Notes under the pieces: model-generated
What the model saw: only the letters and a program-made list of their open reading frames with translations
What the model was told of the DNA's origin: nothing
Databases searched by the model: none
Shown: piece after piece, positions 4,032 to 63,856 of the stretch
Layout of the letters: each line of letters starts with the position of its first letter
Numbering within the stretch: position 1 is the stretch's first letter
Source of the DNA: Candidatus Babeliales bacterium
Lineage (GTDB): Bacteria > Babelota > Babeliae > Babelales > JANWKD01
DNA length: 64,000 nucleotides
Direction: 5' to 3'
Assembly (NCBI GenBank): GCA_963722255.1
Contig: CAVRJO010000001.1
Coordinates: 480,001 to 544,000 of the forward strand
Position numbers and translations under genes: made by a program

Positions 4032-4607
4032 ATGAAAAACTCTTTAGTAGCTTTATTTTTTTTACATTTTTGCGCTATTTTTAGCATGAATAATATCGAT
4101 GATTCTGACAAAGCTCTTAAACTTAGAGTGGTTTCAAAAAAAGAAAATTCGGAATACCCAATGTATAAATCCCCAACTATTTTAATAACAACTCACGCAA
4201 AACACCCTGATTTTATATTTTCTGAATTAAAGAAGTATCCAGTGCAAGATCTTTTTAATTTTCATTATGCTCAGTATAACAATCTTTTACATTGCCTTGT
4301 AGAAGGGTTAGTTGATAAGAAAGATTCTGTCGAAAATTTTGCCCAACTTATTAATGACTACAAACGAATATTTAAATGGCTTGTTAGCATTGGTTTTAAT
4401 ATTAACGAAGTGAATGATCATCACAACACTCCTCTTGTTTTAGCCTACAGTGCAGAAGATCACTCTGTACAGCCTCTTATTAATTTTTTAGAGCATGATT
4501 TACAAGCAAAAACAACCTATTTTTCTTTAGCGCCTGAAATGAGATTTTGCAAAAACGTCTTGTGGGAATTTTTTACCTGCCAATGGTGTAAACAAAAACA
4601 TTCTTGA
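4032..4607 (+). CDS. Secreted ankyrin-repeat-like protein, paralog 1
   Basis: Signal peptide ending FS-MN; LLH...LVSIGFNINEVNDHHNTPL ankyrin-like motif; AAGGAG SD. Confidence 0.7.
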   Translation: MKNSLVALFFLHFCAIFSMNNIDDSDKALKLRVVSKKENSEYPMYKSPTILITTHAKHPDFIFSELKKYPVQDLFNFHYAQYNNLLHCLVEGLVDKKDSVENFAQLINDYKRIFKWLVSIGFNINEVNDHHNTPLVLAYSAEDHSVQPLINFLEHDLQAKTTYFSLAPEMRFCKNVLWEFFTCQWCKQKHS

Positions 4608-4649
4608 ATAAAAAATTAATTATTAAATACATTATCGATAAGGAATACA

Positions 4650-5240
4650 ATGAATAAACTATATGCACTATTATTATTTTTATTATTTATACCAATTTTT
4701 GGTATGGATCAACAAGATTTACCAGAATTTACGTATATAAGGTTTGAAGATTCAAAATATCCAATGTATGAATCACCCGGGCAATTAATCGATAATCATA
4801 TTCAATATCCAACATTTATACAGATCCAATTAAAAAAATATCGCATACAACAACTTCTAAACTTCAGACAACTTTACAGTCACAATAATCTCCTTCATTG
4901 TATTATTAAAAATTTAGCCGAAAAGAAAGAATCTCTTGAAAACTTTAGTGACCTTATAGAAGAATATAAACCAATACTTACCTGGCTTGTTAGCATTGGT
5001 TTGGATGTTAATGAAGTCAATGATAATCGTACTACCCCTCTTATGTTTGTTTATAGGGCACAAACTATCGTAGACTTCCAAGAAAAGGGAAATAAAATAC
5101 AATCATTAATCGATTACTTGGAACATGATTTACATGCAAAACCAACATATCTTTCTCTTGACCCTGAAATAAGATTGTGCAATAATTTCTTGTGGAAACT
5201 TTTTACCTGCCAATGCTGTAAAAAACAAAAATATTCTTGA
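4650..5240 (+). CDS. Secreted ankyrin-repeat-like protein, paralog 2
   Basis: Signal peptide ending FG-MD; LVSIGLDVNEVNDNRTTPL; clear similarity to 4032..4607. Confidence 0.7.
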   Translation: MNKLYALLLFLLFIPIFGMDQQDLPEFTYIRFEDSKYPMYESPGQLIDNHIQYPTFIQIQLKKYRIQQLLNFRQLYSHNNLLHCIIKNLAEKKESLENFSDLIEEYKPILTWLVSIGLDVNEVNDNRTTPLMFVYRAQTIVDFQEKGNKIQSLIDYLEHDLHAKPTYLSLDPEIRLCNNFLWKLFTCQCCKKQKYS

Positions 5241-5310
5241 ATGTTGCAGCGCAATACAATAAAGTAGTAATGAAAGAAATCATTTTCATTATCATGAAAA
5301 GAGATCAAGA

Positions 5311-6162
5311 ATGTTTATACAAATATTGATTCTAACTATGACTCTTATAACAACGGCATCTGCGCATCAAAACCTCTCATTATTACGCGAACATAATCCT
5401 TTTTCCTATGATCTTGGCATAAAAATTATACCAAGCAAGATTAAGAATGCTGATGTTACAATCTGTTGTCATGGGTATGGGCATAATAATCAAATTGTTG
5501 ATGTTGTGCATTCTTTTAATATCATTCCCGGCATCTTAATTGGATTCAATTTTCCTGATTACAATATCACACCGGCTATTGATCACACAAAAGCTGCCTA
5601 TGGTACCATTAAAGAAATTCTACCGCTTCTTTATATTCTAAAAAGATGCGTACATGATCTTCAACTCAAAAAAATAAATCTTTATGGATTTTCAGCAGGT
5701 GCCGGAGCGATTATTAATGCACTTGCAGCATTAAATCAAACGCGCTTTGATACAGAATTACACACTATTGGTATCACACAAGCAATTAAGAAAGAGATCA
5801 TAAATGCGCTTGAAAAAGGATTAATTATTCTCGATTGCCCTTTAAAATCATGCGAAGAAATAATTGATCTTCGTGGCAAAAGTCCTGAATTTGAAATTTT
5901 GGCATCTAATTATAAAAAAAATAGTATGCGGCAAATTGATTCATTACAATTTTTAGCGGGATTACAACTAAACATACTTCTACATTTCCAAAAGCCTGAT
6001 CAAATTTTAGGCAACCGAGATGATACTCTTTTTATTGAACGGTTGCAAAAAGCCAATAAGGGAACTACCACCGTAGTTGTAGGTTTCGATGGTGGTCATA
6101 ACACTATGCATAGAACCTTATGGAATGCATATAAAAAGCTTCAAGGCTCAGCGTTAAACTAA
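5311..6162 (+). CDS. Secreted alpha/beta hydrolase
   Basis: Signal peptide (ASA), HGYG oxyanion motif, GFSAG nucleophile elbow, candidate catalytic D and GGH. Confidence 0.7.
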   Translation: MFIQILILTMTLITTASAHQNLSLLREHNPFSYDLGIKIIPSKIKNADVTICCHGYGHNNQIVDVVHSFNIIPGILIGFNFPDYNITPAIDHTKAAYGTIKEILPLLYILKRCVHDLQLKKINLYGFSAGAGAIINALAALNQTRFDTELHTIGITQAIKKEIINALEKGLIILDCPLKSCEEIIDLRGKSPEFEILASNYKKNSMRQIDSLQFLAGLQLNILLHFQKPDQILGNRDDTLFIERLQKANKGTTTVVVGFDGGHNTMHRTLWNAYKKLQGSALN

Positions 6163-7689: not shown

Positions 7690-7703
7690 AAAATCCAGCA
7701 AAA

Positions 7704-8024: not shown

Positions 8025-8039
8025 AAAATCCTATTTTTA

Positions 8040-8480: not shown

Positions 8481-9930
8481 TGTTAGCGCAAAGTGATAAG
8501 TTCCTATTATAGCGCAAAGTAAAAAGTTCCGGTTTTTAGGGTAAACTTAATCTTGTAAACAAAAAGAAAAACTCTAAAAATGCAACGGAACTTATATGGA
8601 ATATATTACCATGAATCGCAAAGAACGAGAACAGGCAAAAGTGTTTGTTCAGGTTAAAGAAGGAAAAATGACACAGGCAGAGGCTGCAGCCCGTCTGAGA
8701 TTTACAGAGCGGTGGGTCAGAGAAAAATATGGAAGATATTGTGAATCTGACGACTTTGGCCTTGTACATGGCAATAGGGGAAAAGAAAGCCCAAATAGAT
8801 GGGATCAAGGAGAAGAACGATTGTTAATCTCATTGTTAGAAAGCGATTGGCAAGGCTTTGGGCCAACCTTTGCGGCTGAAAAACTTAAAGAGTTGCATGG
8901 AATAAAGATAAGTCGAGAAGCTGTTAGAAAGGTCATGATTAAGGCAGGAATATGGCAACCTAAAAAACAGCGCAGCAAGCATCGCAAGCGACGAGAAAGA
9001 AGGCGTATGTTTGGCATAATGATTCAGCTTGATGGCTCTCCACATGACTGGTTTGAAGGGCGTGCTGGGGTATGTACCTTACTTGTTTTTATTGACGATG
9101 CTACTGGCCAAATCCTTTGGCTTGAGTTTGCCCCTTCTGAATCGATGCATGCTTTAATGACCGCAACTAAAAATTACGTTGAAAAATATGGGATTCCTCA
9201 AACTTTTTATACTGACCACGGTTCTGTTTTCCATGTTAATTTGAGTAATCAAGAAAATATTAAAAAGACCCAATGGGAGCGCGCTTGTAAAGATTTGGGA
9301 ATTGATGTTATACATGCCAATAGTCCTCAGGCAAAGGGCCGCGTTGAACGTTGCAATCAAACCCTTCAAGATCGCCTTATTAAGGAAATGAGACTTGCTG
9401 GGATATCATCAATAGATCAAGCAAATAATTATCTGCGAACAAGCAATTATATTGCAAAGCATAATGCTGCATTTCAAGTTCCTGCTGCCCAAGAAGGCGA
9501 TGCCCATGCTAGCGCTCAATCATTTGATTTAAACGATATATTTAGCACACAAGAGACTCGTATTCTTACGAATGATTTTACTATTACCTACCAAAAACAG
9601 ATTTTTCAATTAAGCGATCAGCAAAAAACAATCATTTTTCCAAAAAATACCATTGTTGTTAAAGTACATTTAAATGGAACCATAAAACTGTGGATTCGAA
9701 AAACAGAACTTTCTTTTAGCGAAATCTACCAACGACCAACCCCCCAAATTCAGGAGAAAAAAATATCTGACTGTATACCAAGAAAGCCTTCAAAAAATAG
9801 CCAACGTTGGGCAGGCGGGTTGCCCCCTAGTGAGAGTAGGTTGAAGCCGGTCGCGCCGGCCGTGGAGGCGCTTTAATGTTAGGAACTTTTTACTTTGCTA
9901 AATACCGGAACTTTTCACGTTGCGTTGACA
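8481..9930 (+). mobile_element. Complete IS1202-family (ISNCY) insertion sequence, 1450 bp, with 15-bp target duplication
   Basis: Ends TGTTAGCGCAAAGTGATAAGTTCC / GGAACTTTTCACGTTGCGTTGACA; flanking direct repeat AAAAATATTAATTTT at 8466-8480 and 9931-9945; two internal sub-repeats per end. Confidence 0.9.
8596..9876 (+). CDS. IS1202/ISNCY DDE transposase (HTH plus integrase core)
   Basis: QLDGSPHDWFEGR, FIDDATG, YTDHGSVF, SPQAKGRVER..QTLQDRL. Confidence 0.93.
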   Translation: MEYITMNRKEREQAKVFVQVKEGKMTQAEAAARLRFTERWVREKYGRYCESDDFGLVHGNRGKESPNRWDQGEERLLISLLESDWQGFGPTFAAEKLKELHGIKISREAVRKVMIKAGIWQPKKQRSKHRKRRERRRMFGIMIQLDGSPHDWFEGRAGVCTLLVFIDDATGQILWLEFAPSESMHALMTATKNYVEKYGIPQTFYTDHGSVFHVNLSNQENIKKTQWERACKDLGIDVIHANSPQAKGRVERCNQTLQDRLIKEMRLAGISSIDQANNYLRTSNYIAKHNAAFQVPAAQEGDAHASAQSFDLNDIFSTQETRILTNDFTITYQKQIFQLSDQQKTIIFPKNTIVVKVHLNGTIKLWIRKTELSFSEIYQRPTPQIQEKKISDCIPRKPSKNSQRWAGGLPPSESRLKPVAPAVEAL

Positions 9931-22419: not shown

Positions 22420-23538
22420 ATGAAGAAACTACTACTATTATTTTTATTTTCGGGATCATGTTTTTTGACACTTGCTTCAACTGGACAAAAAAAAGCACTC
22501 ATCTTTGGCATCACAGGCCAAGATGGCGCTTACCTTGCTGAATTTCTTCTCAAGAAAAACTACATAGTCCATGGTGTAAAAAGGCGTTCATCTTCATTTA
22601 ATACAGCACGTATTGATCACCTTTATCATGATTTACACGAGCCAAATTGTTGTACCTTTGTTTTACATTATGGCGATGTAACCGATAGCACCAATGTTGT
22701 ACGGATTATTCAAGAAGTTCAACCTGATGAAATTTATAATTTGGCAGCACAAAGCCATGTACTTGTTTCATTTGAAACACCTGAATATACTGCCAATTCC
22801 GATGCTCTTGGTACTCTTCGCATCTTGGAAGCAATTAGAATTTTGAAATTAGAAAATAAAACACGCTTTTATCAAGCATCAACAAGCGAACTTTTTGGAA
22901 ATTCACCTCCTCCGCAAAGTGAGCTTACTCCTTTCTGGCCACGCTCGCCCTATGGTGTTGCAAAATTATACGCTTACTGGATTACGGTCAATTATCGTGA
23001 AGCATATGGTATTTTTGCCTGCAATGGAATTCTTTTTAATCATGAATCTCCTCAACGCGGTGAAACATTTGTAACGCGAAAAATTACACGAGCAGTTGCT
23101 CATATCAAAAATGGATTACAGGATACGCTCTATCTAGGAAACTTAGATTCATTGCGGGATTGGGGATACGCTAAAGATTATGTTGAGGCTATGTGGCTTA
23201 TGCTGCAACAAGAAAAACCTGATGATTTTGTTATTGCAACCGGACAAGCACATTCAGTAAGAGAATTTGTTGAACGCGCATTTGCACATGTTGGCATTAC
23301 TATAGAATGGCAAGGAAGCGGCATCAATGAATACGGTATTGATGCCGCAACTAAAAAACGGCTCGTTGCTATAGATCCAAAATATTTCCGGCCCACTGAA
23401 GTTGATTATTTACTGGGTAATACAACAAAAGCCACGCAACTTTTGCAATGGAAGCCGCGAGTCTCTTTTGATGAATTAGTTGCTCTTATGGTTGACCATG
23501 ATTGTGCTTTGGTTACACAGAAAAATGCTCCTCATTAA
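22420..23538 (+). CDS. gmd: GDP-mannose 4,6-dehydratase with N-terminal signal-peptide-like extension
   Basis: [47 protein letters not shown]. Confidence 0.95.
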
Positions 23539-25736
23539 TCACGACTTCGGCGTTTAAATCGTGGCAATTTTTTTAATTCTTTAACTGTTTTTTCTACTTG
23601 TGAGGACATCCATTGTTTATTATGCTTTTCTACTAATGTTTTGAATTCTTGGGGCAAATCTTCATACCCAAATTGCAAAAGATCATCTATCACTACCAAT
23701 TTATTATTCTTTATTACATTCAAAATATACGTTACTATAAGTGCTTGATCTAATAGGACATATGACTGATTAAGAAATGAAAAAATAATAACTGGCGATA
23801 TGTCAAAAAATAACAATTTCTCTACAATACCTGTTGTGCCCATTTCACTCAATTGATACATAATATTATTTCCTATTATCCCTTTAAAATCTAATCTATC
23901 TTTTTTGAAATCACTACTTTCAAAAACAGTAAGCGTTCCACCCGTTTCACTACTACAAAATGCAATCGTAAGAGGATTAACCCCTTCAAAAATAATAGAA
24001 ATTATTACATTCGATATAAAACTTACTCTTACTATTGGATTATCAAATATTCTGGTCCACAACTTCTTCTTTGAATCCATATCAATACATAAAAATTCTC
24101 CATTATTTCTTAATAAAAGCTTATAGGAATCTGGGGAAAAATAAGCAGTTTCGTAAATCTTCGATGTTGCCCATATAATTTTACCATCAGTAACATCAAG
24201 TACAAAAACACCATTTTCTGTTAACAAAGTTATTAATCTATTATCCGGTGAAAAAACAGTAGTATAAGGCAAATTTTTTAAAGGGTTTAGCAATTTCCAT
24301 GAAAAAATATCTTCATCATCAACACTATTTTCTACCTTGATAAGTTCTTTGGAAACTGTAATTATTTTTTTTCCATCAGGTAAAATTCTAGTTAGATCCG
24401 ACTCAGAATTTTGTTTAGTTTTAATTTCCTGTCCCGTCATCATATCAATAGTTCTTACAAAATTTTCATCGTTAGAAAAACACAAATATTTTTTTTCCTC
24501 ATCAAAGTATAATTCACCGATCCTACTATTATTCAAATTCAATCGAAATACAATTTCGCCCGTTTTACTATCGATAAACAACATTGAATTACCATTATCA
24601 TCAAAACTTTCAACAATAATCCTTTTAATGGGTGAAAAAAAACCAAGAACTTTAAAACGTGGCAACTTATTTTTTTGCCATACTTGAATACCAGTTTGCG
24701 CATCAACAAGCTGCATATTATAATAGTTGTTAAAAATTAAAAGCTGTAAACTATCTGAAGAAAAATAAAAATTATTAGAAAAAGAATATGATGCAAGTTC
24801 CCAAATTTTTTTATTTGTTATTAGGTCTACCATAATTATCTTTGAATCAGAGTCAATAAGTGCTGCTAATTTAGTTTTATCGGGAGAAATATTCATGTGA
24901 TATGCACTATATTCTCTCTCAAGAATACGTTTTATCTCTGATTGAGGAAGAGTTTTAAAAATCAATGCTGCGTCATCACATACACGTTGAGATAAAGGTA
25001 GTTGCATCTCTTCGGGCAATCTTTGCATGAGGCTTACATACTCCCCAAGCTTTTCTGCAGAATCAATGCTCTTTAAATGTTTCACCAGAAGATTTTGATA
25101 TTTTTTTAATAACTTTTTACTATCAAGATAGTTTGCTGCATTAATCAAATCAACCAACATTTCATCTGATAAAGAGTCAGAATCATATGCTCTATTTGTT
25201 AAATCTTTATACACATAATCAAATACCTCTTCTGATAAATTCGGTAACGGAATTGGCAGAGTATAATCTTCAACATCTGCAAGGATATTTTTTAAGGTAT
25301 TCGATTTTTTTGCTTGCGCAATTGATAAAACATACTCTTTATTACCTACCTCAATAGTAATATTTGTTAATCGATCGGTGATAACCTCAGAATATTTATC
25401 AATCAATTGTTGAATCTTTAAAATTGAAGCCCCAGCAAGAAGCTGATTCATCATTGTATCATCAAGATCATTTTCATCATAGTTCTGATTTGTTAAATCT
25501 TTATGGATATACTCAAAAATTTCACTTGTAATACCATCAGGCAAAACAATTGCTTCCTCAGGATCAATACGCTTTTTCAGCAGTCTTTCTAACGTTTCAG
25601 ATTGTGATGCTTGCTCTCGAGTCAAAGAATAGACTTGGCCACCAACATTAATTTTTACATCCTCTTTTTGTTCCATTGCATACAAAAAAGAAATAGATAA
25701 AAAACAAGCACCAATCATAATTCTTTTACTATTCAT
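23535..25736 (-). CDS. Secreted effector: two Skp1/POZ-like domains plus beta-propeller, paralog 1
   Basis: GAGGA SD before ATG 25736; signal ending [37 protein letters not shown]; repeated FSPD/FSSD blades. Confidence 0.75.
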
Positions 25737-25878
25737 CACAGATCCTCGCATCAATTTTAATACTATTATTTCTATTATAATAAGAAATCTGATAAAGGTT
25801 TTACAATAAATACTAAAGCTATACAGAAGAATGCTCTTTATTAATCGCGACTGCGGCGTTTAAATCGTGGCATTTTTT

Positions 25879-28080: not shown

Positions 28081-28173
28081 CACAGATCCTCGCATCAATT
28101 ATAATACTATTATTTCTATTATAATAAGAAATCTGATAAAGGTTTTGCAATGAATAAAAAGATCAGATTTATA

Positions 28174-32674: not shown

Positions 32675-32746
32675 TATGACCATCGATGTTGAATAGATAT
32701 TATTTTTAACAGTTATATGCTTCAAAACTACCTTGGATTGATCTCT

Positions 32747-45611: not shown

Positions 45612-46085
45612 ATGGTAAAAAAATCACTTTTTTTATTGAGCATAATATCTATACTGTGTTTTACGACAGCGCCTATGCAACAAGAACTTTCACGCAAAAA
45701 AAAGTTGTCGGCATGTTCATCTCTAATTGCAACTACCATTGGTGTGATAAGCCTCACTGATCAACTCGTTAACAATAAAAAATCATGGCGTCAATCCGCT
45801 TTTACAGTTAGTAGCTGTGTTGTAGGAATTGCAAGTTTCTATAACTATCTTTCGTGGTGTAACCCAACGGTCTATTCGTACTCACATAATATGAATTTGA
45901 TAGGTGTATGCCAAAGAAATTTTTCTTTAGTCAGTTATACGCATGTAGATGTGGTTGAACATACAACTCATTATACAATAGAAGGTAAAAATTATAATAA
46001 AAGTAAATTCTTATCGGAGGAGTATGAATATTCCGATGGTATTATTTATAATGCAGTAGGCAACATAATAGAGCCCAATAATTAA
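45612..46085 (+). CDS. Secreted/membrane hypothetical protein
   Basis: Signal ending AP-MQ; two hydrophobic segments. Confidence 0.6.
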   Translation: MVKKSLFLLSIISILCFTTAPMQQELSRKKKLSACSSLIATTIGVISLTDQLVNNKKSWRQSAFTVSSCVVGIASFYNYLSWCNPTVYSYSHNMNLIGVCQRNFSLVSYTHVDVVEHTTHYTIEGKNYNKSKFLSEEYEYSDGIIYNAVGNIIEPNN

Positions 46086-46103: not shown

Positions 46104-47816
46104 TTAATCAAATGGGAGATGCAAAACAGTGCTTTCACATGCTGATTGTGCAATAATTGTTTCACCCATACTATAAATATCGGTGATCGGATCTTGAATT
46201 CTTATATCAAGTTCTCGTGGTTCACGTGGCTCTTTATCGCTATGTTCAATAAATTTAAGTTTTCCATCCTTCATGCCCATAAGCAATCCATCATCTCGAA
46301 CTTTAAGTGTCACTACATTAGTTACATCAAAAGGTGCATAAAACTCTGTACCATTATCTAAATGAATGCCAATTAGTGCATTTTCTGTTAAATAGACAAG
46401 AACAGGATTATAAAGAGCTATGCTTTTAACTGCCGAATTACAAGGAAAAACCTTGATATACTTCTTGTCTTTTAAATCCCAAACCTTAATAGTTTTATCG
46501 GTTGATCCGGAAAATAGCTTGTACGAATCTTCCATCGTAAATCCAGTAATTTCACCGGCATGCTTTTCTCTAAAAGAAAAGTGTTCATCATCTTTTATGT
46601 TATCAATTTCCAATGATCCATTCTCATAAGCACGCACAAGATAAGGATACTCAAAGTGAATTCGCGTTGGACGATTCTCTTGAGCATTAAAATATACTGA
46701 AATAGTATGAAACATAAACGAAGGTGGACATAAAGTTTCAGTGACTAAATCAGGAATAGAATAATTTTCATCGGCAAAAAACAACGGCTCATTATTCTGC
46801 GTCATATACGTTTTAACTAACAGTTTTTCTTTCAAATCATAACAGTCAACTAATCCATTATGCTGAGGAAGAAAGACAAATCGATCAAAAAAATAGGGCT
46901 TACACGCTAAGCTCGAATCAACTTTTACAATAATTGTATGCCTTCTTGGTCCATGAACCTTCGAAGCTTCATCAAGAAGGTGTTCCATAGGAGAAACATC
47001 TTTATGATGATCCCTACCTGAATGCATATCGCTATACGATCTATTACGATCATAAAAGCCATTATTATGTAAAGAACTTACAGCAGAATGAGAAGCATTA
47101 TCATCTAATAACTTTTGCAGTAATTGAGCATATTTTCCTACTTCTTTTGCAATTATGGGCTCATCGGATAAACGTTCTTGTACATTGCGCAATAGTCTAG
47201 GTTGATCCTTTAATAGCATTGTAGAATAATTATTGAGGAGCCCGACAATTATATCCTTTGAAAGATCTGAATCATTACATGAAAATATTTCACCACATGC
47301 TTTCAGTCCTCCAACAAACTCTCCTGCAATAGAATCTAAATCAGTAGTTTCTTTCTCTTTCTCTTTTTCATAACAAATTTTTTGTGCAATTTGTGCAGAA
47401 CTGCGTAATGAACACAGATTTTTCAACCGAGTAAAAACTTTTTGCTTCCTACCGGGCAAAATAATTTTCTCTATAATCAGATTGCGTACTATTTCTTCAG
47501 ATTCAGTATCTCGTATTTTAGACTCATAAAGATCCATAACAACAAGGCAAAATTTCTTTGTCAATGACCAATTTTTATCAATTACCTCATTAATCATATA
47601 TGATAATGCGTTTACTTGTTCTTTATATGATAAGGTTGTAAGTTCTTTCAACATATCCTGAAATAATCCTAAATACGCTCCATTTTTATCATACATTTCA
47701 TGCAAGTTGCGAGCAACCATGCTACAATGCTCACCTAAACCATCCTCCATAGAAAAAATTCCACTAAAATTCAAACAAACTATAAAAGTGAATGCTATAA
47801 TTATTTTTTTTTGCAT
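46104..47816 (-). CDS. Secreted WD40-repeat protein, paralog 1
   Basis: Signal ending FS-ME; H.GEI...LFSGSTDKTIKVWD. Confidence 0.75.
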   Translation of the reverse strand: MQKKIIIAFTFIVCLNFSGIFSMEDGLGEHCSMVARNLHEMYDKNGAYLGLFQDMLKELTTLSYKEQVNALSYMINEVIDKNWSLTKKFCLVVMDLYESKIRDTESEEIVRNLIIEKIILPGRKQKVFTRLKNLCSLRSSAQIAQKICYEKEKEKETTDLDSIAGEFVGGLKACGEIFSCNDSDLSKDIIVGLLNNYSTMLLKDQPRLLRNVQERLSDEPIIAKEVGKYAQLLQKLLDDNASHSAVSSLHNNGFYDRNRSYSDMHSGRDHHKDVSPMEHLLDEASKVHGPRRHTIIVKVDSSLACKPYFFDRFVFLPQHNGLVDCYDLKEKLLVKTYMTQNNEPLFFADENYSIPDLVTETLCPPSFMFHTISVYFNAQENRPTRIHFEYPYLVRAYENGSLEIDNIKDDEHFSFREKHAGEITGFTMEDSYKLFSGSTDKTIKVWDLKDKKYIKVFPCNSAVKSIALYNPVLVYLTENALIGIHLDNGTEFYAPFDVTNVVTLKVRDDGLLMGMKDGKLKFIEHSDKEPREPRELDIRIQDPITDIYSMGETIIAQSACESTVLHLPFD

Positions 47817-47848: not shown

Positions 47849-49450
47849 TTACTTAAGCGGTAAATGAACCATTGCACAATCTTTTTCCGATTGTGCAATA
47901 ACAATATCTTCTAAACAGGTAAGTTTCATTATAGAACCTTCTATTCCGGTTTTTATGGTTATTGGCTCTTGAATCTTCTTGTCAATTTTAATGTATCTAA
48001 GATTGCCATTATTCAAACCAAAAATAAAACCATCGTTACGCGATCTAAAAACTTCGGCCCGATGCGCATCAATATCCATTGGAAATGCTGACCTATCTTC
48101 TGGATCACAATTCATTAACGCATTATCGGTTAAAGAAAAAATCATTGTATCAAAAATAGCAATATCTTTAACTGGCCTCCAACAATCAATTGTTCCTTTA
48201 TATCGTTTTTTTCTTAAATTCCAAAATTTAACAGTCTTATCGGTTGATCCCGATAGCAATCTATGCAAGCCAACGAATATCAAAGAAGTAACTGTCCCAT
48301 TATGCTTCTCTTCAAAAGAAAAATGTTCACCTTCCTTTACATTATCTATTTCAAGAGAAGTATCATACGCTCTTACAAGATAGGGATACTCAAAAAGCAC
48401 CTTACTGGGACAAATCAGATCATTATTGAAATAAGCAAAAATCATTTGCTTCCGTAAACAAGGATGCGCTATTTTTTCGCATGTCATTCCCGGAATAGTA
48501 CAATCTTCTTTGGCAATAAAAAGAGGGTTTTTGCCGGTAAGTTTATATGGTTTATGATATTCTCTTCCCTGAAGATCTAAACAATGAACTGTTCCATTTT
48601 TTGCAGGAAGAAAAAGAAGGTGCCCATATATAAAAGGACGACAGTATGCAAAATCAATATCTTTTCCTACAATATGACCTTTTAGTGTAAACTTCTTTTT
48701 TTTCAAAGAAGCTTTCGGTGCATTTTCTAATTCTTTCTTTTTCACAAATTTTTGCAGAGAAAGAAGATATCTTTTGAGCTCTCTTTGAATATATCCTTTG
48801 TTCATTCTATTTTTTGCTTCTTGAAGAATAGCACACTGATCCTCTAAGGTCACATTCAAGTCATCTAATAAGGTATTAATTATATCACGAGAAACTCCAG
48901 AATCTCCGCACTTAAACATTTCAGACCAAGCAACGAGTCCAGTACAAAATCTTTTTACCAATTCTTCTGATTGACCTGAACTCTTTTCTTTTTCTTTCTC
49001 ATTTTTGCAAGCGACTTTTATTTTGGTCGACCCTTGGAAACAAAGCGCTTCTAACTTTTCAAATATTTTTGGTTTATCACTGCTTTGTAAACTAAGAATC
49101 CTTTCTACAATTTGATGTCGAATAGCATCTTCAATGCCGGTGCCTTTTATTTTGGTATCAAAAAGATTCAATACAACAAGGCACAAATTTTCAGTTAATG
49201 ATCTATTTTTATTAACAACCTCACGAATCATATGTGATAGTGCTTCTATTTGCCCTTCATACGACAACTCATTGAGCTCTCCAAGCATTGTTTGATACAA
49301 AGCTGAATATTTTTTATTTTCATAGTGTTTATTAAGGTTACGAGCAACTGTTATAAAATATTCACCAAAATTATCTACATTCATGGAAAAAGTTACACCA
49401 AAGTTCAAAAAAACCATAAGAGCAAATGTTGTTCTTATATTATTTTGCAT
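47849..49450 (-). CDS. Secreted WD40-repeat protein, paralog 2
   Basis: AAGGAG SD; signal ending FS-MN; HNGTV...LLSGSTDKTVKFWN. Confidence 0.75.
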   Translation of the reverse strand: MQNNIRTTFALMVFLNFGVTFSMNVDNFGEYFITVARNLNKHYENKKYSALYQTMLGELNELSYEGQIEALSHMIREVVNKNRSLTENLCLVVLNLFDTKIKGTGIEDAIRHQIVERILSLQSSDKPKIFEKLEALCFQGSTKIKVACKNEKEKEKSSGQSEELVKRFCTGLVAWSEMFKCGDSGVSRDIINTLLDDLNVTLEDQCAILQEAKNRMNKGYIQRELKRYLLSLQKFVKKKELENAPKASLKKKKFTLKGHIVGKDIDFAYCRPFIYGHLLFLPAKNGTVHCLDLQGREYHKPYKLTGKNPLFIAKEDCTIPGMTCEKIAHPCLRKQMIFAYFNNDLICPSKVLFEYPYLVRAYDTSLEIDNVKEGEHFSFEEKHNGTVTSLIFVGLHRLLSGSTDKTVKFWNLRKKRYKGTIDCWRPVKDIAIFDTMIFSLTDNALMNCDPEDRSAFPMDIDAHRAEVFRSRNDGFIFGLNNGNLRYIKIDKKIQEPITIKTGIEGSIMKLTCLEDIVIAQSEKDCAMVHLPLK

Positions 49451-49519
49451 AGATTCTCCTTGCATAATGTTTTTTTACCCTACAGTACCGCTTTTTTGAG
49501 CCGTTGTAAATTTATATGT

Positions 49520-49586: not shown

Positions 49587-50435
49587 TTATTGATATTCAA
49601 TATTGTTTAAACGTTGGCGCTGACGACGACCTAAATGTCTTACTCTTGATTTTCTTTTTTGACCGGACTCTTTTTGGCTCTGCATAGCACGTTGTTGGCT
49701 CGTTCCTTGTGCCGTTGGTGTCGCAGAACCGGGAGCATTGTGATACGTTATAACTGGTTGAACATCTTGTTGGATTGCTGTTTGTTGCACATTCCTTTGG
49801 CTAGCCGGTTGTTGTACAGATTGCTGCATCATTGATTGCTGTTCATGCATAGGTTGCCCTTGGGCTACTTTTCCTTGCATTTGTTGAGGTGCTACATTGT
49901 GTGGCTGAGCCATTCTACCTTGCGGCGCAGCTGGTTGTTGCATAGTCGATGGCATTTGTTGTGGTTGCCCTTGATATGAAACCGTTGATTGTGGGCAACT
50001 GCCGCCTTTCAACAGACTAATTTCACCTGCAATTTTTGCTTTTGTACGTTCACTGGCTCCACTAAAGGAGCTCTTTTTATTACCTGATTTATCAAAAAAA
50101 ACAAAGGTCGGATGTGATCGAATAGCATAACGAGCTTCTAACGTTTCACTACCCTTAAACGATCCATAACAAATTTCTAAAAAGATCACATCAGGATACT
50201 CTTTTGCCATTGCATAATAGGTATCATGAAAAGCTTTGCATGGTCCGCATGTTGCTGAACCGAAATATGCGACCACAAAATTACCCGATTTCACATAACG
50301 ATCAAATTCTTCTATGGATTTTATAAAAATTACAGATCCGCCAGCTTTTTGGGTCATCTCGGCTGCCTGCACCGTTATCAAAGAAAACAGAAGCGCAATC
50401 ATAGTAACATATGTTGCTTTTCTACCTATGTCCAT
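49587..50435 (-). CDS. Exported thioredoxin (CGPC) with Gln-rich linker and basic tail
   Basis: Signal ending VQA; CGPC; HPTFVFF; Q/P/M-rich C-terminal half. Confidence 0.8.
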   Translation of the reverse strand: MDIGRKATYVTMIALLFSLITVQAAEMTQKAGGSVIFIKSIEEFDRYVKSGNFVVAYFGSATCGPCKAFHDTYYAMAKEYPDVIFLEICYGSFKGSETLEARYAIRSHPTFVFFDKSGNKKSSFSGASERTKAKIAGEISLLKGGSCPQSTVSYQGQPQQMPSTMQQPAAPQGRMAQPHNVAPQQMQGKVAQGQPMHEQQSMMQQSVQQPASQRNVQQTAIQQDVQPVITYHNAPGSATPTAQGTSQQRAMQSQKESGQKRKSRVRHLGRRQRQRLNNIEYQ

Positions 50436-50459: not shown

Positions 50460-50882
50460 TTATTGTAATTGAGCAACTCTGCTTTGTAATTCCTGTTTTG
50501 ATAATCCGCCAGCTTTAACTTTTCCACTAGTTGTACCATTTTTATTAACAAAAACAAAGGTTGGCACACCGGATAATGATTCCTTATTATGCGTTATTGT
50601 TTTGCAAATCTCATTTGCTCCTGACTTGTCAGTGTTAACTTTGTAAAAATGTATTCCATTTTTAGATTCCATAGCAACCTTGCTATAGATTGGCGCCATA
50701 TGTTGACAATGCGGACACGATGGTCTATAAAACTCAACAACCATAGGTGCCATCATCTGCTCTGGTTGAATTTGCTCAGGGACATCTTGTATAGATTGAG
50801 CAAAAACACTCACACCAATAAAAACATTCATTAGGAGCATTGTTACATTTCTTTTTATAAAAATCATAGCGCCATTCCTCAC
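50460..50882 (-). CDS. Exported thioredoxin-fold protein (CPHC)
   Basis: VVEFYRPSCPHC, GVPTFVF; signal ending VFA. Confidence 0.8.
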   Translation of the reverse strand: MRNGAMIFIKRNVTMLLMNVFIGVSVFAQSIQDVPEQIQPEQMMAPMVVEFYRPSCPHCQHMAPIYSKVAMESKNGIHFYKVNTDKSGANEICKTITHNKESLSGVPTFVFVNKNGTTSGKVKAGGLSKQELQSRVAQLQ

Positions 50883-54923: not shown

Positions 54924-55142
54924 TTAAAAATTATCATAAAAATGAATTGGATGTGTAGGACCAGAGCCACAGTTTTGTGTTTGTTGGCTAAAAGATTCTA
55001 TTTGAGCTTCTGCTCCACTGGTACTAGCAACCTGAGAACCGGAATTGGCGACACCATTTGTACCATTTTCCATACTATACGTAGTATGCACAGTAACGAT
55101 TAAAAATAAAATCACTCTATATATACAGTTCTTGATATTCAT
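54924..55142 (-). CDS. Small secreted protein
   Basis: GAGGAG SD before MNIKNC; signal ending YS-ME. Confidence 0.6.
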   Translation of the reverse strand: MNIKNCIYRVILFLIVTVHTTYSMENGTNGVANSGSQVASTSGAEAQIESFSQQTQNCGSGPTHPIHFYDNF

Positions 55143-55200
55143 TAATAATCTCCTCATTATGATTACGTGAACTTGATTCATGTCTACTATTATTATAATT

Positions 55201-55848
55201 CTACTGAACTATACCTCTATACTTTTGAAAATCTTCTTGAAAGGTGACAAACTTAAAATGCATGAATACCGTAGTACTCATATTGATCATGCGAGCGTCC
55301 ATATCTCTGCATGCTTGTATATATCGAACTCTATTGTTTGCTCTTTCAATAAACTGTTGCGTCACAAGATAAATATTAGAGCTCCCAAATGTCCCTTGCA
55401 TAAACACATTCCCATTTTCTTGTTTTAATTTTTCAATTTTAGAATATGCAGCTCCATAGTCAGTTTCAATGTTAAGAGGTCGTGTTTCAGTAAATTGCTT
55501 GAGACGATCCAATTGCAAGAAAAACTTAAAATCCAATAAAAAATCCGCATTTACATTTTGACCTGTCACTTTTTTAAATGCCAATTCTGTAAGATATGTT
55601 TTGTAATAAAGTGAATCCTTTTCTTCAACTTGTTTAATTAAAGCAGCCAATTTTTCAAGGTTAACATACTCATCACATTCTTTGCTTGTATTTCTAAAAC
55701 AAACAATATTATTATCTTGTACTTCGATTTTGCCTTGCATAAAGGCTTCAATCAAATTGATGGTGAAAGAATAATTATCATTTCGCTCTTCCATAGAATG
55801 CAGGGGTAAAATAGCACTACAAACCAACATAACTAATTTAAACCACAT
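55201..55848 (-). CDS. Secreted hypothetical protein
   Basis: AAGGAG SD before MWFKL; signal ending HS-ME. Confidence 0.7.
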   Translation of the reverse strand: MWFKLVMLVCSAILPLHSMEERNDNYSFTINLIEAFMQGKIEVQDNNIVCFRNTSKECDEYVNLEKLAALIKQVEEKDSLYYKTYLTELAFKKVTGQNVNADFLLDFKFFLQLDRLKQFTETRPLNIETDYGAAYSKIEKLKQENGNVFMQGTFGSSNIYLVTQQFIERANNRVRYIQACRDMDARMINMSTTVFMHFKFVTFQEDFQKYRGIVQ

Positions 55849-55870
55849 AGCACTCCTTAATAACGTACAA

Positions 55871-56422
55871 CTATTGCTCAAAAATACCTTCATCTAAAGC
55901 TTTTTTGTACCAATCAATACTTTGTTCAATAAGAAGATGGGCTTCTTGCTTGTCTAAAAACCGATCCACAATCACTTGTTTTTCTTCTAACTTTTTATAG
56001 GTTTGAAAAAAATCCTTGATTGTTTCGACCAAATCATGCGGGAGCTCTTCAATAGTTTTTATACCATTAACGCTATAATCGTGCGTTGCAACGGCTATAA
56101 TCTTATCATCTTGCTGCCCGGCATCAATCATATGTAATGCTCCTATGGGGGTTATTTCTACAATAGATAAAGGCACAAGCGGTTCTGAACAAATAATAAC
56201 TGCATCAAGGGGATCATTATCATCACAATACGTTTGTGGAATAAATCCATAATGAAAAGGATAGGTCAAATGCGTACGCAAAACTCTATCTAATCGTAAT
56301 AATCCGGTTGCCTTATCAAGTTCATATTTTGCTTTTGAACCTTTGGTAATTTCAATAACAGCATTAACCGTATCCGGCGAACCCTTTCCATAAGACAATG
56401 CATGCCAAGGATGAAGAATCAT
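55871..56422 (-). CDS. ppa: Soluble inorganic pyrophosphatase, family I
   Basis: KYELDK, YP.HYGFIPQT..DDNDPLD, DDKI. Confidence 0.95.
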   Translation of the reverse strand: MILHPWHALSYGKGSPDTVNAVIEITKGSKAKYELDKATGLLRLDRVLRTHLTYPFHYGFIPQTYCDDNDPLDAVIICSEPLVPLSIVEITPIGALHMIDAGQQDDKIIAVATHDYSVNGIKTIEELPHDLVETIKDFFQTYKKLEEKQVIVDRFLDKQEAHLLIEQSIDWYKKALDEGIFEQ

Positions 56423-58134: not shown

Positions 58135-58719
58135 ATGAAACTACTAAAATTATATAGTCTATTCTTTTTATCTTTTGTTATAGCCAATATTTCAGGCATG
58201 GAAGAACCGCTTACCAGAGAAAACGTTATCGAAAAATTTGAGGAATTGAAAGATTTGTATGAAAAAAACAAGAGTAATCTGTATGATAATAATATAACAC
58301 TTCCTTATAATCGTAGATGCGAGAGAATAGCTAAAGATCTTAATGGTAAAGATCCTAATCTTCAAAATATAGTAAGACTAATTGACGGTTGCACTAAGAT
58401 TATTAATTCTGAAATCGAAAAAATCAGAGGAGATGACTTAGAGTCGAGAAACCGGTACACACAATATAATATGAATAGAGCAGGCATTGCGCCAGCAGCA
58501 GCAACAGCTCCTGCAGCATTTAATACTAGTCCAAAAATCAATATACCAAAAATTGTAGCCTATCTTTGTGGAACAGGAATTTGCACTGGCATTGGGATTT
58601 ATAGCTATTATAAACTTTCCCCTGAAGCATGGTTTCGACCAATTTCATTGGGTTTAAGTTCTGTTGGCGGAATCGCATGCAGTTATTTAACCTATATACA
58701 TTGCATTCATCGAAAATAA
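58135..58719 (+). CDS. Secreted protein with C-terminal two-helix membrane hairpin
   Basis: Signal ending SG-ME; C-terminal cassette shared with the next gene. Confidence 0.7.
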   Translation: MKLLKLYSLFFLSFVIANISGMEEPLTRENVIEKFEELKDLYEKNKSNLYDNNITLPYNRRCERIAKDLNGKDPNLQNIVRLIDGCTKIINSEIEKIRGDDLESRNRYTQYNMNRAGIAPAAATAPAAFNTSPKINIPKIVAYLCGTGICTGIGIYSYYKLSPEAWFRPISLGLSSVGGIACSYLTYIHCIHRK

Positions 58720-58800: not shown

Positions 58801-59595
58801 ATGAAATTACCAAAAATCTTTTTTATATTCCTTAGCGTTCTCCTGACGTTACCTCTCTTATCAATGGAAAAATTAACTAAAGAAGGGCTACAACTACAAT
58901 TCGATCAACTTAATGAAAAGTTTATGGAAAATAAATCTTCACTTAATGTCACAACCGAATCCAAAGTGGAAGCTCTAATCAATTCAACACAAGAATCATT
59001 AAAAAAGAAAAAATTGAAAAAAAAGAGTTCAAAAACAGTTTATGAAAATATTACTCAAGCTCAAGAGCTTTTAGATAGTGCAATTAAACAAAAAAAAAGC
59101 GAAGCTCTTTTGCTGGCTAGAGCACAAAAAATGAAAGGAAAAGCACAAGAAGCTGAAAAGCAAACAACTCAACGATTACAATGCCAAGCACCACAATTAC
59201 AACAATTTCCACAACAAGTACAAAATGTTGAATATTTTGTATTACAAATTCCTGAACCTGAAATGTTAGCCCAACCAAATCCAATAACCGAGTTTTCCTT
59301 AAGTGCAATACAAGAGCAAGAACCAGACACTATCCTAACTACTCTTCCAGGACTTCTTCATCCAAAAGAAAATATACCAATGCTTTCAACTGCATTGCAT
59401 AAAGCTCGCCCGATTTCTTGGGGCAAAGTATATGCCTATCTTTGTGGCACTGGACTTTGTACTGGCATTGGGATTTATAGCTATTATAAACTTTCTCCTG
59501 AAACATGGTATCGACCAATTTCATTGGGTTTAAGTTTTCTTGGCGGATCAGCTTGCAGTTATTTAACCTATAAAAATTTAAGATCTAACAAATAA
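58801..59595 (+). CDS. Secreted protein with C-terminal two-helix membrane hairpin
   Basis: Signal ending LS-ME; K-rich and Q-rich middle; shared C-terminal cassette. Confidence 0.7.
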   Translation: MKLPKIFFIFLSVLLTLPLLSMEKLTKEGLQLQFDQLNEKFMENKSSLNVTTESKVEALINSTQESLKKKKLKKKSSKTVYENITQAQELLDSAIKQKKSEALLLARAQKMKGKAQEAEKQTTQRLQCQAPQLQQFPQQVQNVEYFVLQIPEPEMLAQPNPITEFSLSAIQEQEPDTILTTLPGLLHPKENIPMLSTALHKARPISWGKVYAYLCGTGLCTGIGIYSYYKLSPETWYRPISLGLSFLGGSACSYLTYKNLRSNK

Positions 59596-59654
59596 CAAAC
59601 AAAAAAGAGACGTTGAATTAAAAATTACAACGACTTTTTTATAATTTTACAATC

Positions 59655-61364: not shown

Positions 61365-61389
61365 TCTTCTACTTTAGATGAATAACTTA

Positions 61390-62394
61390 TTATTGAAGGC
61401 CTGTTCCGGTTGCTCCAGCGGCACCATCATCACCGCCATTATCTCTTTCCGGCTCTTCATCGCTTGATACATCGTCGCCTTCATCATCTATCACAAGAGG
61501 CCTGATATTTGTCATTCTTCTTTTTCTCTTTCTTCTTATATTGGCAACGTCCTTAATAAATTTCCTCACGCGGCCAGTGTTTGGATCAAAATAATAATTT
61601 ACATACTGACTATCTTTTTTAGTAACCTGATTCTCAATAGACAGAATATCTATTTCTTGAGTTCCAAGCCTAACATCATTATCAATGGTTGTTTCAACAC
61701 TGCTAGTAGTACCAACAGGAATCCATTCTCCAAGAGGAATCAAATTATTAAGATTAACTCTTGGGTGAAGTATAGTATCAAACTCTCTAGCGATTTCATC
61801 ACCCTGTCCTAAAGGCCCGAACAATGAATCATTACGATCTTGTGATCTTGGTTGCATATAATCCAAAACAGGTCGATCTGGCGTAGGAGTATTAAACTGC
61901 ATAATTAAATCACGAAGCTCATCTAAATTTCCATTATCAACATTTGAACCAACATCTGACATTTCAGTATCTTGACTATTATTTGACAAAAATGATGAAA
62001 ATATAGCAGACATGCCAACATTGTCTTCATTATCTGCTGAATTCAATTGTTCCAAATTATTATAATAGTTTTCATGATTATAATGCGCTGGATTAAAAGA
62101 ATCAGAATTACCTACATTTTGATTTGGATTCACACGATCAGATACATAAGGATATAAAGCAGCAATTGCTTGACTTATTTGATATGCTCGATTTCGATCT
62201 ACCTCAAGACTTAAAGCTAAGCGCCTGTCCTCTAAATTAGCACGGGTAAAATTTTCACCCAATCCCAAAAACTCACGCGCATTCCTAATTTCCTCACCAG
62301 GTTGAACAATAGGATGATTAGGATTATGTTCCATTGCATTACTCATTGCAACAAACGTCAGTAAAACTAAAATTCCATTTAATTGATTTTTCAT
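61390..62394 (-). CDS. Secreted low-complexity protein with NLS-like motif
   Basis: Signal ending NA-ME; RRKRKRR followed by an acidic tail. Confidence 0.7.
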   Translation of the reverse strand: MKNQLNGILVLLTFVAMSNAMEHNPNHPIVQPGEEIRNAREFLGLGENFTRANLEDRRLALSLEVDRNRAYQISQAIAALYPYVSDRVNPNQNVGNSDSFNPAHYNHENYYNNLEQLNSADNEDNVGMSAIFSSFLSNNSQDTEMSDVGSNVDNGNLDELRDLIMQFNTPTPDRPVLDYMQPRSQDRNDSLFGPLGQGDEIAREFDTILHPRVNLNNLIPLGEWIPVGTTSSVETTIDNDVRLGTQEIDILSIENQVTKKDSQYVNYYFDPNTGRVRKFIKDVANIRRKRKRRMTNIRPLVIDDEGDDVSSDEEPERDNGGDDGAAGATGTGLQ

Positions 62395-63032
62395 AAATCC
62401 CCCTTGAAATAAATTTTAAAATATGGAAGTTCAAAAAGCGACTCATATCTTTGCATCATTTGTTCAGAAGTCTCCAATGTTTTTGGTTGCATTAACTGAC
62501 TGCTGTTACTCGCATTGAGTCCTGCAAGTTGTGCATATAATATATTTTCATCATTCGCTTCTTTAATTCCTAAATCTCTATCAACCGGTTTTTTAATTGC
62601 TAACGCTTGATCAATTGTTTTTTTAATTGCTGGAAACGAAAGCATAATAATTAATCTGCGATAACAATCAAAAAAATACGCTGATTCTTCACTTGTAGGC
62701 AGCGTCGTATTCATATATGAGCGCACTTCATTAATTTCTTCTAATGAAGTATTTTTCAAACCCAATTCAGCACAATAATCCACACCCTTCTTAATAACAT
62801 CTTGAATAGTAGTGTTCTCAGGATTTATAAATCCAAAATCTTTGCAACGCTCAATTCGTGTATAGTGCAATTCATTGCAAGAGACATCTTTTGAAAGATC
62901 TAAAATATGTCGCCATTTATTTTGTTCTTGTTCATCGATTTGTCCTAAATAATCATGACTTTCTCTATACATTGCATTATTCATTGCAATAAATGAGAGT
63001 AAAACCCAAACTAATGCTAATTGTTTTTTCAT
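62391..63032 (-). CDS. Secreted hypothetical protein, N-terminus related to the next gene
   Basis: MKKQL...FIAMNNA-M versus MKNQL...FVAMSNA-M; ATGA overlap. Confidence 0.7.
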   Translation of the reverse strand: MKKQLALVWVLLSFIAMNNAMYRESHDYLGQIDEQEQNKWRHILDLSKDVSCNELHYTRIERCKDFGFINPENTTIQDVIKKGVDYCAELGLKNTSLEEINEVRSYMNTTLPTSEESAYFFDCYRRLIIMLSFPAIKKTIDQALAIKKPVDRDLGIKEANDENILYAQLAGLNASNSSQLMQPKTLETSEQMMQRYESLFELPYFKIYFKGDL

Positions 63033-63157
63033 AAATCCTCTTTGAAATATTTATTTTTTAAAAAGAACCATTTATTAATGGCCTCATATTACTATTAGTA
63101 TACATGAGAAGCGAAAAAAATATAGGTATTAATCTTTCCTTCAGCGATTTTTACTAC

Positions 63158-63667
63158 CTATTGTGAACTCCACCATGAATTTAATAACCAACCACCAACA
63201 CAACCTATTGCTAAGCAGGATACTGCCCCTAGGCATAATTCTAATCTATGGGGAATAATGTTGGTTTTTATTTTACGATCTTTATAGACTACTTCTTTCT
63301 TTTGAGCGAAGATCTGAGCAAAAAGTTCTTCAATTTTTTTCAACTGAACAATGCTATTTTTTACATTTCTTAGTTCTTCAAGAGCACCATATAGACTATA
63401 TAAATAACTCGTAAAGTATGGCTGCTCTTTAAAATGTGAATCAAAATCTAAAGCAGGGTCGTTTTCTGCCATATTATGATAAGACCTTATTTGTTGTTTC
63501 AAAGCTGCAATAAACTCAGCTTCAATCACTTGCCCCTTCATTCTTCCTATACTTTTTTTTCGCTCTTCAGTAGATACTGTTGAGCCATCTTTTGTCATCC
63601 CCTGCGCACCGGTAAAGGCACCAACTATGAAAATAGTTAAAAATAGGGTAAAAATTCTTTTATTCAT
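63158..63667 (-). CDS. Secreted protein with C-terminal TM anchor
   Basis: GGAG SD before MNKRIF; signal ending QG-MT; C-terminal hydrophobic helix. Confidence 0.65.
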   Translation of the reverse strand: MNKRIFTLFLTIFIVGAFTGAQGMTKDGSTVSTEERKKSIGRMKGQVIEAEFIAALKQQIRSYHNMAENDPALDFDSHFKEQPYFTSYLYSLYGALEELRNVKNSIVQLKKIEELFAQIFAQKKEVVYKDRKIKTNIIPHRLELCLGAVSCLAIGCVGGWLLNSWWSSQ

Positions 63668-63856
63668 AACTCCATTCCTTTGAATAAAACTAAATAGTAT
63701 AAACTTGAACATATTTCAAATATACAATATTTTTAAAAAGGCGTCAAATAAGATTTTTAAAGGTATTTTACCTGCCAAAAACACCTTAAAGCATAAGAAG
63801 CTATGGATTTGCTTAATAAACCCATAGCTTCTTGTATAAGAGTTCTTTAAAAAATC

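Follow-up and report, generated by a model that had tools for sequence, protein, structure and literature searches.

Why do many of the secreted proteins encoded in one stretch of a Candidatus Babeliales genome carry a methionine at the very point where their leader is expected to be removed? The stretch in question (the window) covers 64,000 nucleotides, positions 480001-544000 of contig CAVRJO010000001.1 (C1), which belongs to a genome (G000) of 1,618,240 bases in two contigs, with 34% G+C. A sequence-only reading of the window had described about 16 proteins in which a Sec-type leader is followed by a small residue and then by Met. It had proposed that cleavage creates a host-like N-terminus that acts as a tag for a second translocation step and/or protects effectors in the host, an internal start codon being its alternative. 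All 16 of these proteins were found to display a Sec-type leader, then a small residue (Pro at -1 in the protein encoded by 45612..46085), then a Met encoded by ATG.

The description can be extended roughly ten-fold at the scale of the genome. Indeed, the data strongly indicate a protein-level motif, [LIVSA]-x-[ASGC]↓M-[E>N,Q,D] (the arrow marks the predicted cut), in 161-191 proteins, or roughly one tenth of the proteome. This Met(+1) rule places a predicted signal peptidase I site directly before a conserved Met, and it is strongly indicated that the mature proteins would begin with Met-Glu or, less often, with Met-Asn, Met-Gln or Met-Asp. The functional reading attached to the window proteins is plausible.

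Form of the Met(+1) rule

Genes were called with an in-house open reading frame pipeline and a codon-usage filter, which yielded 1676 genes covering 87% of the genome; no RNA or DNA sequencing runs were found. All the signal-peptide counts and cleavage sites given here are predictions of an in-house heuristic that combines a hydrophobic segment with the -3/-1 rule. Leaders were accepted when the first 60 residues contained a hydrophobic segment, when no more than 14 residues separated it from an upstream start codon and when the charge of the n-region was non-negative. The strict set further requires that the protein carry no additional hydrophobic segments and at least one site with small residues at -3 and -1 no more than nine residues past the end of the segment.

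An N-terminal hydrophobic segment is present in 821 of the 1676 called genes. Without imposing the -3/-1 rule, Met represents 3.0-7.3% of the residues at each of the nine positions past the segment, versus a background of 1.7%, and 0.7-1.6% at positions ten to fourteen (n = 821). Met occurs within these nine positions in 346 of the 821 proteins; the residue before it is Ala, Ser, Gly, Cys or Thr in 254 cases, the residue at -3 is mostly Leu, Ile, Ser, Ala, Val or Thr, and the residue after it is Glu in 118 cases, Asn in 45, Gln in 33 and Asp in 13. The coincidence of the predicted signal peptidase I site with the Met, claimed for the window, thus holds for the genome.

In the strict set, Met is found at +1 of a -3/-1 site in 161 of 408 signal-peptide-like proteins (hereafter Met-type proteins). 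By comparison, 200 shuffles gave a mean of 12.1 such proteins (standard deviation 3.5, maximum 21), and moving the -3/-1 rule 30-80 residues inward gave 4-9. Met accounts for 28% of the weighted +1 residues, the runner-up being Ser with 8.7%. When further hydrophobic segments are permitted, the number of Met-type proteins reaches 191, with Glu, Asp, Asn or Gln next in 147 of them. The strict filter keeps only 10 of the 16 window proteins, the others being lost because of additional hydrophobic stretches, a weak core, or a Pro or Asn residue at -1/-3; it is therefore conservative. A 50 kb control from Escherichia coli contained 3 leaders, none with Met, and is too small to count.

The residue that follows the Met is also constrained. 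In the strict set it is Glu, Asp, Asn or Gln in 128 of 161 proteins, i.e. the set named for the window, a small residue in 13, Lys, Arg or His in 17 and a hydrophobic residue in 3. At +1 and +2 of the non-Met proteins, the same categories represent 29-33% (Glu, Asp, Asn or Gln), 38-39% (small) and 13-21% (hydrophobic); small residues are thus depleted about five-fold after the Met relative to comparable non-Met positions. Glu largely exceeds Asp (82 versus 9) and is found in 51% of cases, whereas only 8.3% of the 339 proteins devoid of a hydrophobic N-terminus have it as their second residue. Information content is restricted to positions -3, -1, +1 and +2, and no shared C-terminal signal was seen on the Met-type proteins (at most 0.22 bits per position). 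The Glu codons (63 GAA, 19 GAG) follow the genome ratio (18422:4816) and the -1 codons are diverse; therefore, the motif is a protein-level one. A nucleotide-level motif is ruled out by these observations and by the lack of a purine tract.

The features of the Met-type leaders strongly indicate ordinary Sec-type signal peptides, which would be translated from an upstream ATG. The leader start is ATG in 157 of 161 cases and the n-region carries Lys or Arg in 151, with a mean net charge of +1.6. The hydrophobic core averages 12.2 residues and leader lengths peak at 19-23; leader length (21.6 residues) and core hydrophobicity are equal in Met-type and non-Met proteins. A Tat-like twin-arginine motif is present in only 3 of the 161 leaders and a lipobox-like string in only 7, the residue at +1 being Met and not Cys. 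Type IV prepilins have leaders of the form G↓F/M...E, and Met can also be their first mature residue after leader cleavage. However, their hydrophobic stretch follows the cut, whereas here it precedes it, and none of the 161 leaders matches the prepilin-like pattern.

Shine-Dalgarno-like 4-mers are located 4-18 bases before 52% of the Met-type leader starts and 53% of the non-Met ones, but precede only 1.2% of the junction Mets, below the 4.6% found before Mets located deep inside genes. This placement rules out the internal start codon that had been kept as an alternative for the window proteins. Diverged paralogs, such as those encoded by 4032..4607 and 4650..5240 (52% identity), retain open, signal-like leaders of differing sequence. 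The inner ATG could also be imagined as a second start, so that every gene would yield two products, one exported and one cytoplasmic: the ATG found exactly at the junction is in frame, and the domains are cytoplasmic in type. However, besides the Shine-Dalgarno values just given, the bases before the junction Met display a T-at-second-position rhythm made of T-rich hydrophobic codons, and no marker of a type III or type IV secretion system that could use cytoplasmic cargo was found in G000, so that dual products appear very unlikely.

Proteins that carry the methionine

Pfam matches were compared between 91 Met-type proteins (out of 161; E <= 0.001) and 123 non-Met signal-peptide proteins (out of 247; E <= 1e-5), all encoded by C1. 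The Met-type matches comprise ankyrin repeats (8 proteins), WD40 repeats or other beta-propellers (5), DnaJ (3), GNAT (3) and, in one protein each, RING, C2H2 zinc finger, Sel1/TPR, a kinase-like P-loop protein and the papain-like DUF1796; no known family was found in 61 of the 91. None of the 91 matches a classical envelope family, versus 12 of the 123 non-Met proteins (Fisher p = 0.0015). These 12 are a secretin, two M3 peptidases, a penicillin-binding transpeptidase, two thioredoxins, a solute-binding protein, OmpA, YfiO/BamD, an M15 peptidase, PEBP and PilN. Ank, WD40, RING, C2H2 and Sel1 domains occur in 16 of the 91 Met-type and 7 of the 123 non-Met proteins (Fisher p = 0.007). The non-Met set also includes 7 ankyrin proteins and likely false positives (PolA, Gmd). 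Among the 33 ankyrin genes of the whole genome (Ank_2 over cut-off), 24 encode a leader and the Met, 6 a leader without the Met and 3 no leader. The comparison strongly indicates that the Met marks secreted proteins that are eukaryote-like or of no known family and not the classical envelope families, in agreement with the effector class proposed from the window.

The domains that can be named in Met-type proteins need ATP, acetyl-CoA, Hsp70 or ubiquitin machinery, which are not periplasmic; therefore, we infer that the workplace of these proteins would be the host cytosol. The three GNAT and three DnaJ proteins are encoded on C1 at L035:9088-10507, L014:15279-15830, L037:8395-9132, L014:6662-7270 and L018:3366-4109. 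The Met-type set of G000 also contains a PALP enzyme whose leader is probably a false one, due to a chance upstream extension.

In the window, two of the Met-type paralogs mentioned above are encoded on the + strand by 4032..4607 and 4650..5240. Their 18-residue leaders and Met19 occupy 4032..4088 (junction FS↓MN, Met codon at 4086) and 4650..4706 (FG↓MD, Met codon at 4704). An outside homolog of the second one, P0002 (public gene call), also begins with a leader and has the junction FS↓ME. On the - strand, the tandem genes 23535..25754 and 25879..28098 encode paralogous Skp1_POZ/beta-propeller proteins, both with a YA↓ME junction (leader and Met 25674..25754 and 28018..28098, Met codons 25674-25676 and 28018-28020). 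These proteins are 51% identical and the first 180 bases of their genes 98-100% identical, the 120 bases upstream being only 58% identical (ungapped). This pattern looks like gene conversion of the 5' end.

Further along the - strand, a RING-finger protein (32213..32725, leader and Met 32612..32725, junction CA↓ME, Met codon 32612-32614) matches zf-C3HC4 (E 2.1e-4) and zf-RING_2 (E 2.8e-4), matches that would drop out at the stricter limit applied to the non-Met proteins (E <= 1e-5). Gene 37854..39392 (-), taken for an F-box gene in the sequence-only reading, has a leader and Met at 39291..39392 (RA↓MQ, Met codon 39291-39293), and its Pfam scan gave no family at E <= 0.001. The exceptional junction with Pro at -1, AP↓MQ, which fails the -3/-1 rule, is that of 45612..46085 (+, leader and Met 45612..45677, Met codon at 45675). 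It is followed on the - strand by the gene of a WD40-like protein, 46104..47816 (leader and Met 47748..47816, FS↓ME, Met codon 47748-47750), and by that of its paralog, 47849..49465 (49382..49465, FS↓MN, Met codon 49382-49384).

The remaining Met-type proteins are grouped near the end of the window. Genes 54924..55181 and 55201..55893, on the - strand, have their leader and Met at 55071..55181 (YS↓ME, Met codon 55071-55073) and 55792..55893 (HS↓ME, Met codon 55792-55794). Genes 58135..58719 and 58801..59595, on the + strand, have theirs at 58135..58200 (SG↓ME, Met codon at 58198) and 58801..58866 (LS↓ME, Met codon at 58864). The proteins encoded by this second pair both end in two hydrophobic stretches separated by a short loop, an arrangement that presumably recalls chlamydial inclusion-membrane proteins. 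Three more genes of the - strand complete the series: 61390..62394 (leader and Met 62332..62394, NA↓ME, Met codon 62332-62334), 62391..63032 (62970..63032, NA↓MY, Met codon 62970-62972) and 63158..63712 (63596..63712, QG↓MT, Met codon 63596-63598). Two genes that cross the edges of the window show the same pattern, LIA↓MEED and LC↓MEER.

The five exported proteins of the window that had been described as lacking the Met indeed lack it. They are encoded by 5311..6162 (+, ASA↓H), by 49587..50435 (-, a thioredoxin, VQA↓A), by 50460..50882 (-, labelled a second thioredoxin-like protein in the sequence-only reading, VFA↓Q), by the gene at 42218 (IFA↓N) and by that at 22420 (Gmd, TLA↓S). The last one, a GDP-mannose 4,6-dehydratase (22420..23538, +, E 6.6e-152), carries its signal-like leader directly before the Rossmann fold, which may correspond to a membrane anchor or to an unusual location. 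Another signal-like hydrophobic leader, of about 20 residues, begins DNA polymerase I (35031..37832, -, DNA_pol_A E 5.5e-139); matches to this protein in relatives begin at query residues 7-38, and the leader could be a particularity of this genus. Elsewhere in the window, the open reading frames 8596..9876 (+) and 34073..34899 (-) resemble by eye an insertion sequence transposase and transposase fragments.

Paralogs and related genomes

The 613 leader proteins are spread over 49 small families, none of which exceeds the 10 members of the largest one; this rules out a single expanded paralog family as the source of the rule. Homologs of Met-type proteins are few elsewhere; searches with two window proteins gave one outside match each. 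Met-type genes are clustered, with 43 adjacent pairs versus 21.6 ± 4.2 in shuffles. Of 34 paralog pairs that include a strict Met-type protein, 26 have the Met in the partner too, and in the 23 Met-keeping pairs below 60% identity the flanking positions are only 17-52% identical. Similar leader DNA is scarce, with only 31 pairs among 408 genes. The mature parts are homologous in 8 of these pairs, and most of the others involve neighbouring genes; this scarcity rules out a mobile promoter/leader cassette.

The sequence-only reading had called for the residues at +1 and +2 to be tabulated across related genomes. Sixty genomes, all assigned to one order, were sampled from the phylum of the window, and 20 related genomes were put through the same pipeline, each with 100 kb of sequence (87.8 kb for G058). 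The Met(+1) rule is strong in the family of G000, with 17 Met-type among 34 signal-peptide proteins in G001, 15/31 in G003 and 14/27 in G004, and in two other families, f17 (G020, 11/28) and f11 (G014, 14/32; G022, 12/27). Three genomes are intermediate (G024, 6/24; G058, 4/17; G050, 6/25). The values are low in G051 (4/32), G008 (2/19), G052 (1/18), G033 (1/16) and G040 (1/25), and no Met-type protein was found in G057 (0/16), G009 (0/17), G005 (0/17), G007 (0/9), G006 (0/15) and G010 (0/21). Pooled, this gives 83/179 for the three nearest families, 16/66 for the intermediate genomes and 9/205 for the eleven others. These eleven genomes, with a G+C content of 29-42%, similar to that of G000, serve as a negative control for the pipeline. 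In the six strong relatives, 67 of 83 junction Mets are followed by Glu, Asp, Asn or Gln; the proportion is 8 of 16 among the intermediate genomes and 2 of 9 among the low ones.

Judged by PolA and ribonucleotide reductase identity, which gives a ranking and not a phylogeny, the three strong families are also those nearest to G000. PolA identity is 66-70% within the family, 61% and 59% for the two other strong families and at most 57% elsewhere; the corresponding values for ribonucleotide reductase are 73-74%, 67% and 68%, and at most 64%. The data strongly indicate that the rule is a trait of the family of this genome and of its two nearest families.

The link with a class of proteins is found again in these relatives. 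No envelope family was detected by Pfam among 54 Met-type proteins from seven other genomes; the matches include WD40, Ank, Fic, PLD and NADAR, in addition to two UvrD genes with chance upstream extensions. The 31 non-Met proteins from G014 and G020 include a NamZ muramidase, a C11 peptidase and two thioredoxins. In G015, 3 of 4 ankyrin proteins have the Met. The same order also contains leader-bearing ankyrin proteins without the Met, which is therefore no general export requirement in this order. In G058, where the rule is partial, the four Met-type proteins all resemble effectors (ankyrin in two, Fic and WD40 in one each; L083, L081), and the link between Met and class may therefore reach beyond the strong clade. 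The two UvrD genes, L064:9832-12108 (G014) and L130:2020-4296 (G022), are false positives of the pipeline: each has a hydrophobic extension of 12 residues upstream of an inner Met, without Lys or Arg.

Two further explanations were considered. In the first one, leaders would have been recruited upstream of the old start codon of cytoplasmic or acquired genes, and the old Met would persist at the junction as a scar. The domains of Met-type proteins are normally cytoplasmic, most of these proteins are fast-evolving orphans with few homologs, their genes are clustered in tandem, and chance upstream extensions do occur, as in UvrD of G014 and G022 and in the PALP enzyme of G000. However, the excess of Glu after the Met relative to ordinary second residues and the recurrence of the motif in three families, with equal frequency and an equal set of +2 residues, argue against a neutral scar of the start codon. 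Furthermore, the Met is kept in 30-50% identical paralogs whose leaders have diverged, the leader-bearing ankyrin proteins of other lineages are devoid of it, and no shared leader cassette was found. This explanation is considered unlikely.

In the second one, a dedicated or altered signal peptidase I would prefer Met at P1', or the Met would tune the rate of processing. G000, G001, G003, G004 and G020 each harbour two Peptidase_S26 genes, but in G014 and G022 the rule coexists with a single Peptidase_S26 match, and two such genes are also present in rule-less genomes such as G005, G007 and G052. In addition, the same cell presumably also processes the non-Met proteins. A dedicated second signal peptidase is thus unsupported, and peptidase specificity as a whole seems the least probable of the explanations considered here.

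The exposed end and its possible role

The export machinery recognized in G000 comprises one SecA, two Peptidase_S26 genes, a secretin, PilN and two T2SSE ATPases. VirB4 and FHIPEP, markers of type IV and type III secretion systems respectively, gave no match in this genome, which is 93% complete. A second SecA was also considered and discarded, a single match being found.

The explanation favoured here starts with Sec export of the leader-bearing protein, which would be cleaved directly before the Met. The mature protein would then leave the cell either through the secretin, with the type II/IV-pilus-like ATPases, which would be the only recognizable outer-membrane route, or in vesicles. Its Met-Glu, Met-Asp, Met-Asn or Met-Gln end would have been selected for its effect in the host, where it would resemble a native eukaryotic start. 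Such ends are not trimmed by methionine aminopeptidase, are acetylated by NatB and are neither Met-hydrophobic nor Arg/N-degron ends; the protein would thus be stable. Within this explanation, the structural part (ordinary Sec leaders, the Met(+1) rule and its limits to one class and one clade) is highly probable. A host-like, stable N-terminus as the function of the motif ranks first among the candidate functions, although its probability is put somewhat short of even. The explanation as a whole, joining rule, export and host stability, is judged to be evenly poised between right and wrong.

Several known systems resemble the Met(+1) rule in part. One of them is the eukaryotic NatB class, which has the same set of dipeptides, found in 128 of 161 cases here and in 67 of 83 in relatives. 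However, the Met of a NatB substrate is the initiator residue of a nascent chain, whereas here an internal Met would be exposed by proteolysis in a bacterium, and Asp is rare relative to Glu (9 versus 82). Residues next to a cleaved signal can also set the next destination in bacteria, acidic ones being favoured, as in the +2 rule of Escherichia coli lipoproteins and in the lipoprotein export signal of Bacteroidetes (PMC5080379). These lipoprotein sorting signals differ in acting on a lipidated Cys at +1, in place of which Met is found here. The Plasmodium export element (PEXEL) is likewise a short motif placed after an endoplasmic reticulum/Sec signal, whose processing exposes a defined N-terminus and marks a class of effectors sent to the host (10.1101/2023.07.12.548774). 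It is, however, a pentamer located downstream of the signal and processed by a dedicated aspartic protease in a eukaryote, whereas here an ordinary signal peptidase site would expose the end.

The nearest likeness is the Q-rule of Bacteroidetes, also a lineage-specific preference for one residue right after the signal peptidase I site that was detected statistically at the scale of the proteome. In this case, Gln at +1 of signal peptidase I substrates is cyclised to pyroglutamate (PMC5837995; PMC10653852). The Q-rule extends to most signal peptidase I substrates throughout a phylum, and the enzyme that modifies the residue, a cyclase, is known; the Met(+1) rule concerns one class, with no envelope family among the 91 proteins scanned, in three families of one order, and its residue is Met with Glu next. 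Full-text literature searches, whose coverage leaves out most subscription journals, found no description of a Met rule. An isolate of the presumed phylum was reported to carry signal peptides on 44% of its genes, those of ankyrin proteins included, with the export route left open (PMC6561590), and a term search of that paper did not find the word 'methionine'.

Alternatively, Met-Glu could be an address code, a bacterial counterpart of PEXEL with its own reader: a secretin system or another factor would recognize it on Sec-exported eukaryote-like proteins and move them out of the periplasm, across the outer membrane and into the host. The motif is class-specific, with no envelope families, as well as short, positional and protein-level. 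A Sec-dependent route would need some selection of its cargo, given that no type III or type IV secretion marker was found in G000, and the preference for Glu over Asp looks like the specificity of a receptor. Precedents exist, since PEXEL processing exposes an N-terminus needed for translocation (10.1101/2023.07.12.548774) and a lipoprotein export signal is known in Bacteroidetes (PMC5080379). However, no candidate reader was found, six ankyrin genes of G000 have leaders without the Met, sister lineages have leader-bearing ankyrins without the motif, and the authors of the Q-rule concluded that the +1 residue is no generic sorting signal (PMC5837995). This address code ranks second; it is possible but rather improbable.

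Several points weigh against the favoured explanation. The cleavage sites are heuristic predictions only, and the residues at -1 and -3 of the strict set are imposed by the rule itself. Any small stabilising residue (Ala, Ser, Gly or Thr) also avoids the Arg/N-degron; therefore, host stability alone explains neither the choice of Met nor the preference for Glu over Asp, and the excess of Glu and the use of Met instead of any small residue would fit an export tag better. Furthermore, NatB acts on nascent chains, and a protein imported after its synthesis may escape acetylation. The rule is also soft. Besides the 6 of 33 ankyrin genes with a leader and no Met, two neighbouring paralogs differ in state (SYT↓MDKPKMP and SYT↓LEKPKMP) and further switches between Met and non-Met occur among homologs across genomes. 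Many of the non-Met signal-peptide proteins are likewise orphans. In low-rule genomes, most ankyrin proteins retain a leader, but the Met is present in at most 1 of 10 in G008, 0 of 5 in G009, 0 of 2 in G005 and 0 of 2 in G010; the Met is therefore dispensable for that lifestyle, and its lack in sister lineages with similar arsenals would fit neatly neither host stability nor an export tag. Finally, delivery of the Met-type proteins to the host is assumed, and a leader-bearing ankyrin protein has been reported to be periplasmic in another bacterium (bioRxiv 10.1101/2022.02.23.481736).

What is at stake is the way in which these reduced intracellular bacteria deliver hundreds of eukaryote-like proteins, no marker of an injection system having been found in G000. 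In this genome and its closest relatives, a two-residue mark, carried by about four in ten secreted proteins, would split the secretome into a host-directed and a housekeeping class. It provides a list of effector candidates obtained from sequence only, 161-191 in G000, most of them without known family. Point mutants at the Met or the Glu, combined with N-terminomics, would offer a clean experimental handle, and the lineages devoid of the mark a natural comparison in the search for its reader. The Met(+1) rule would be the second lineage-specific '+1 rule' after the Q-rule of Bacteroidetes, and the first class-specific one.

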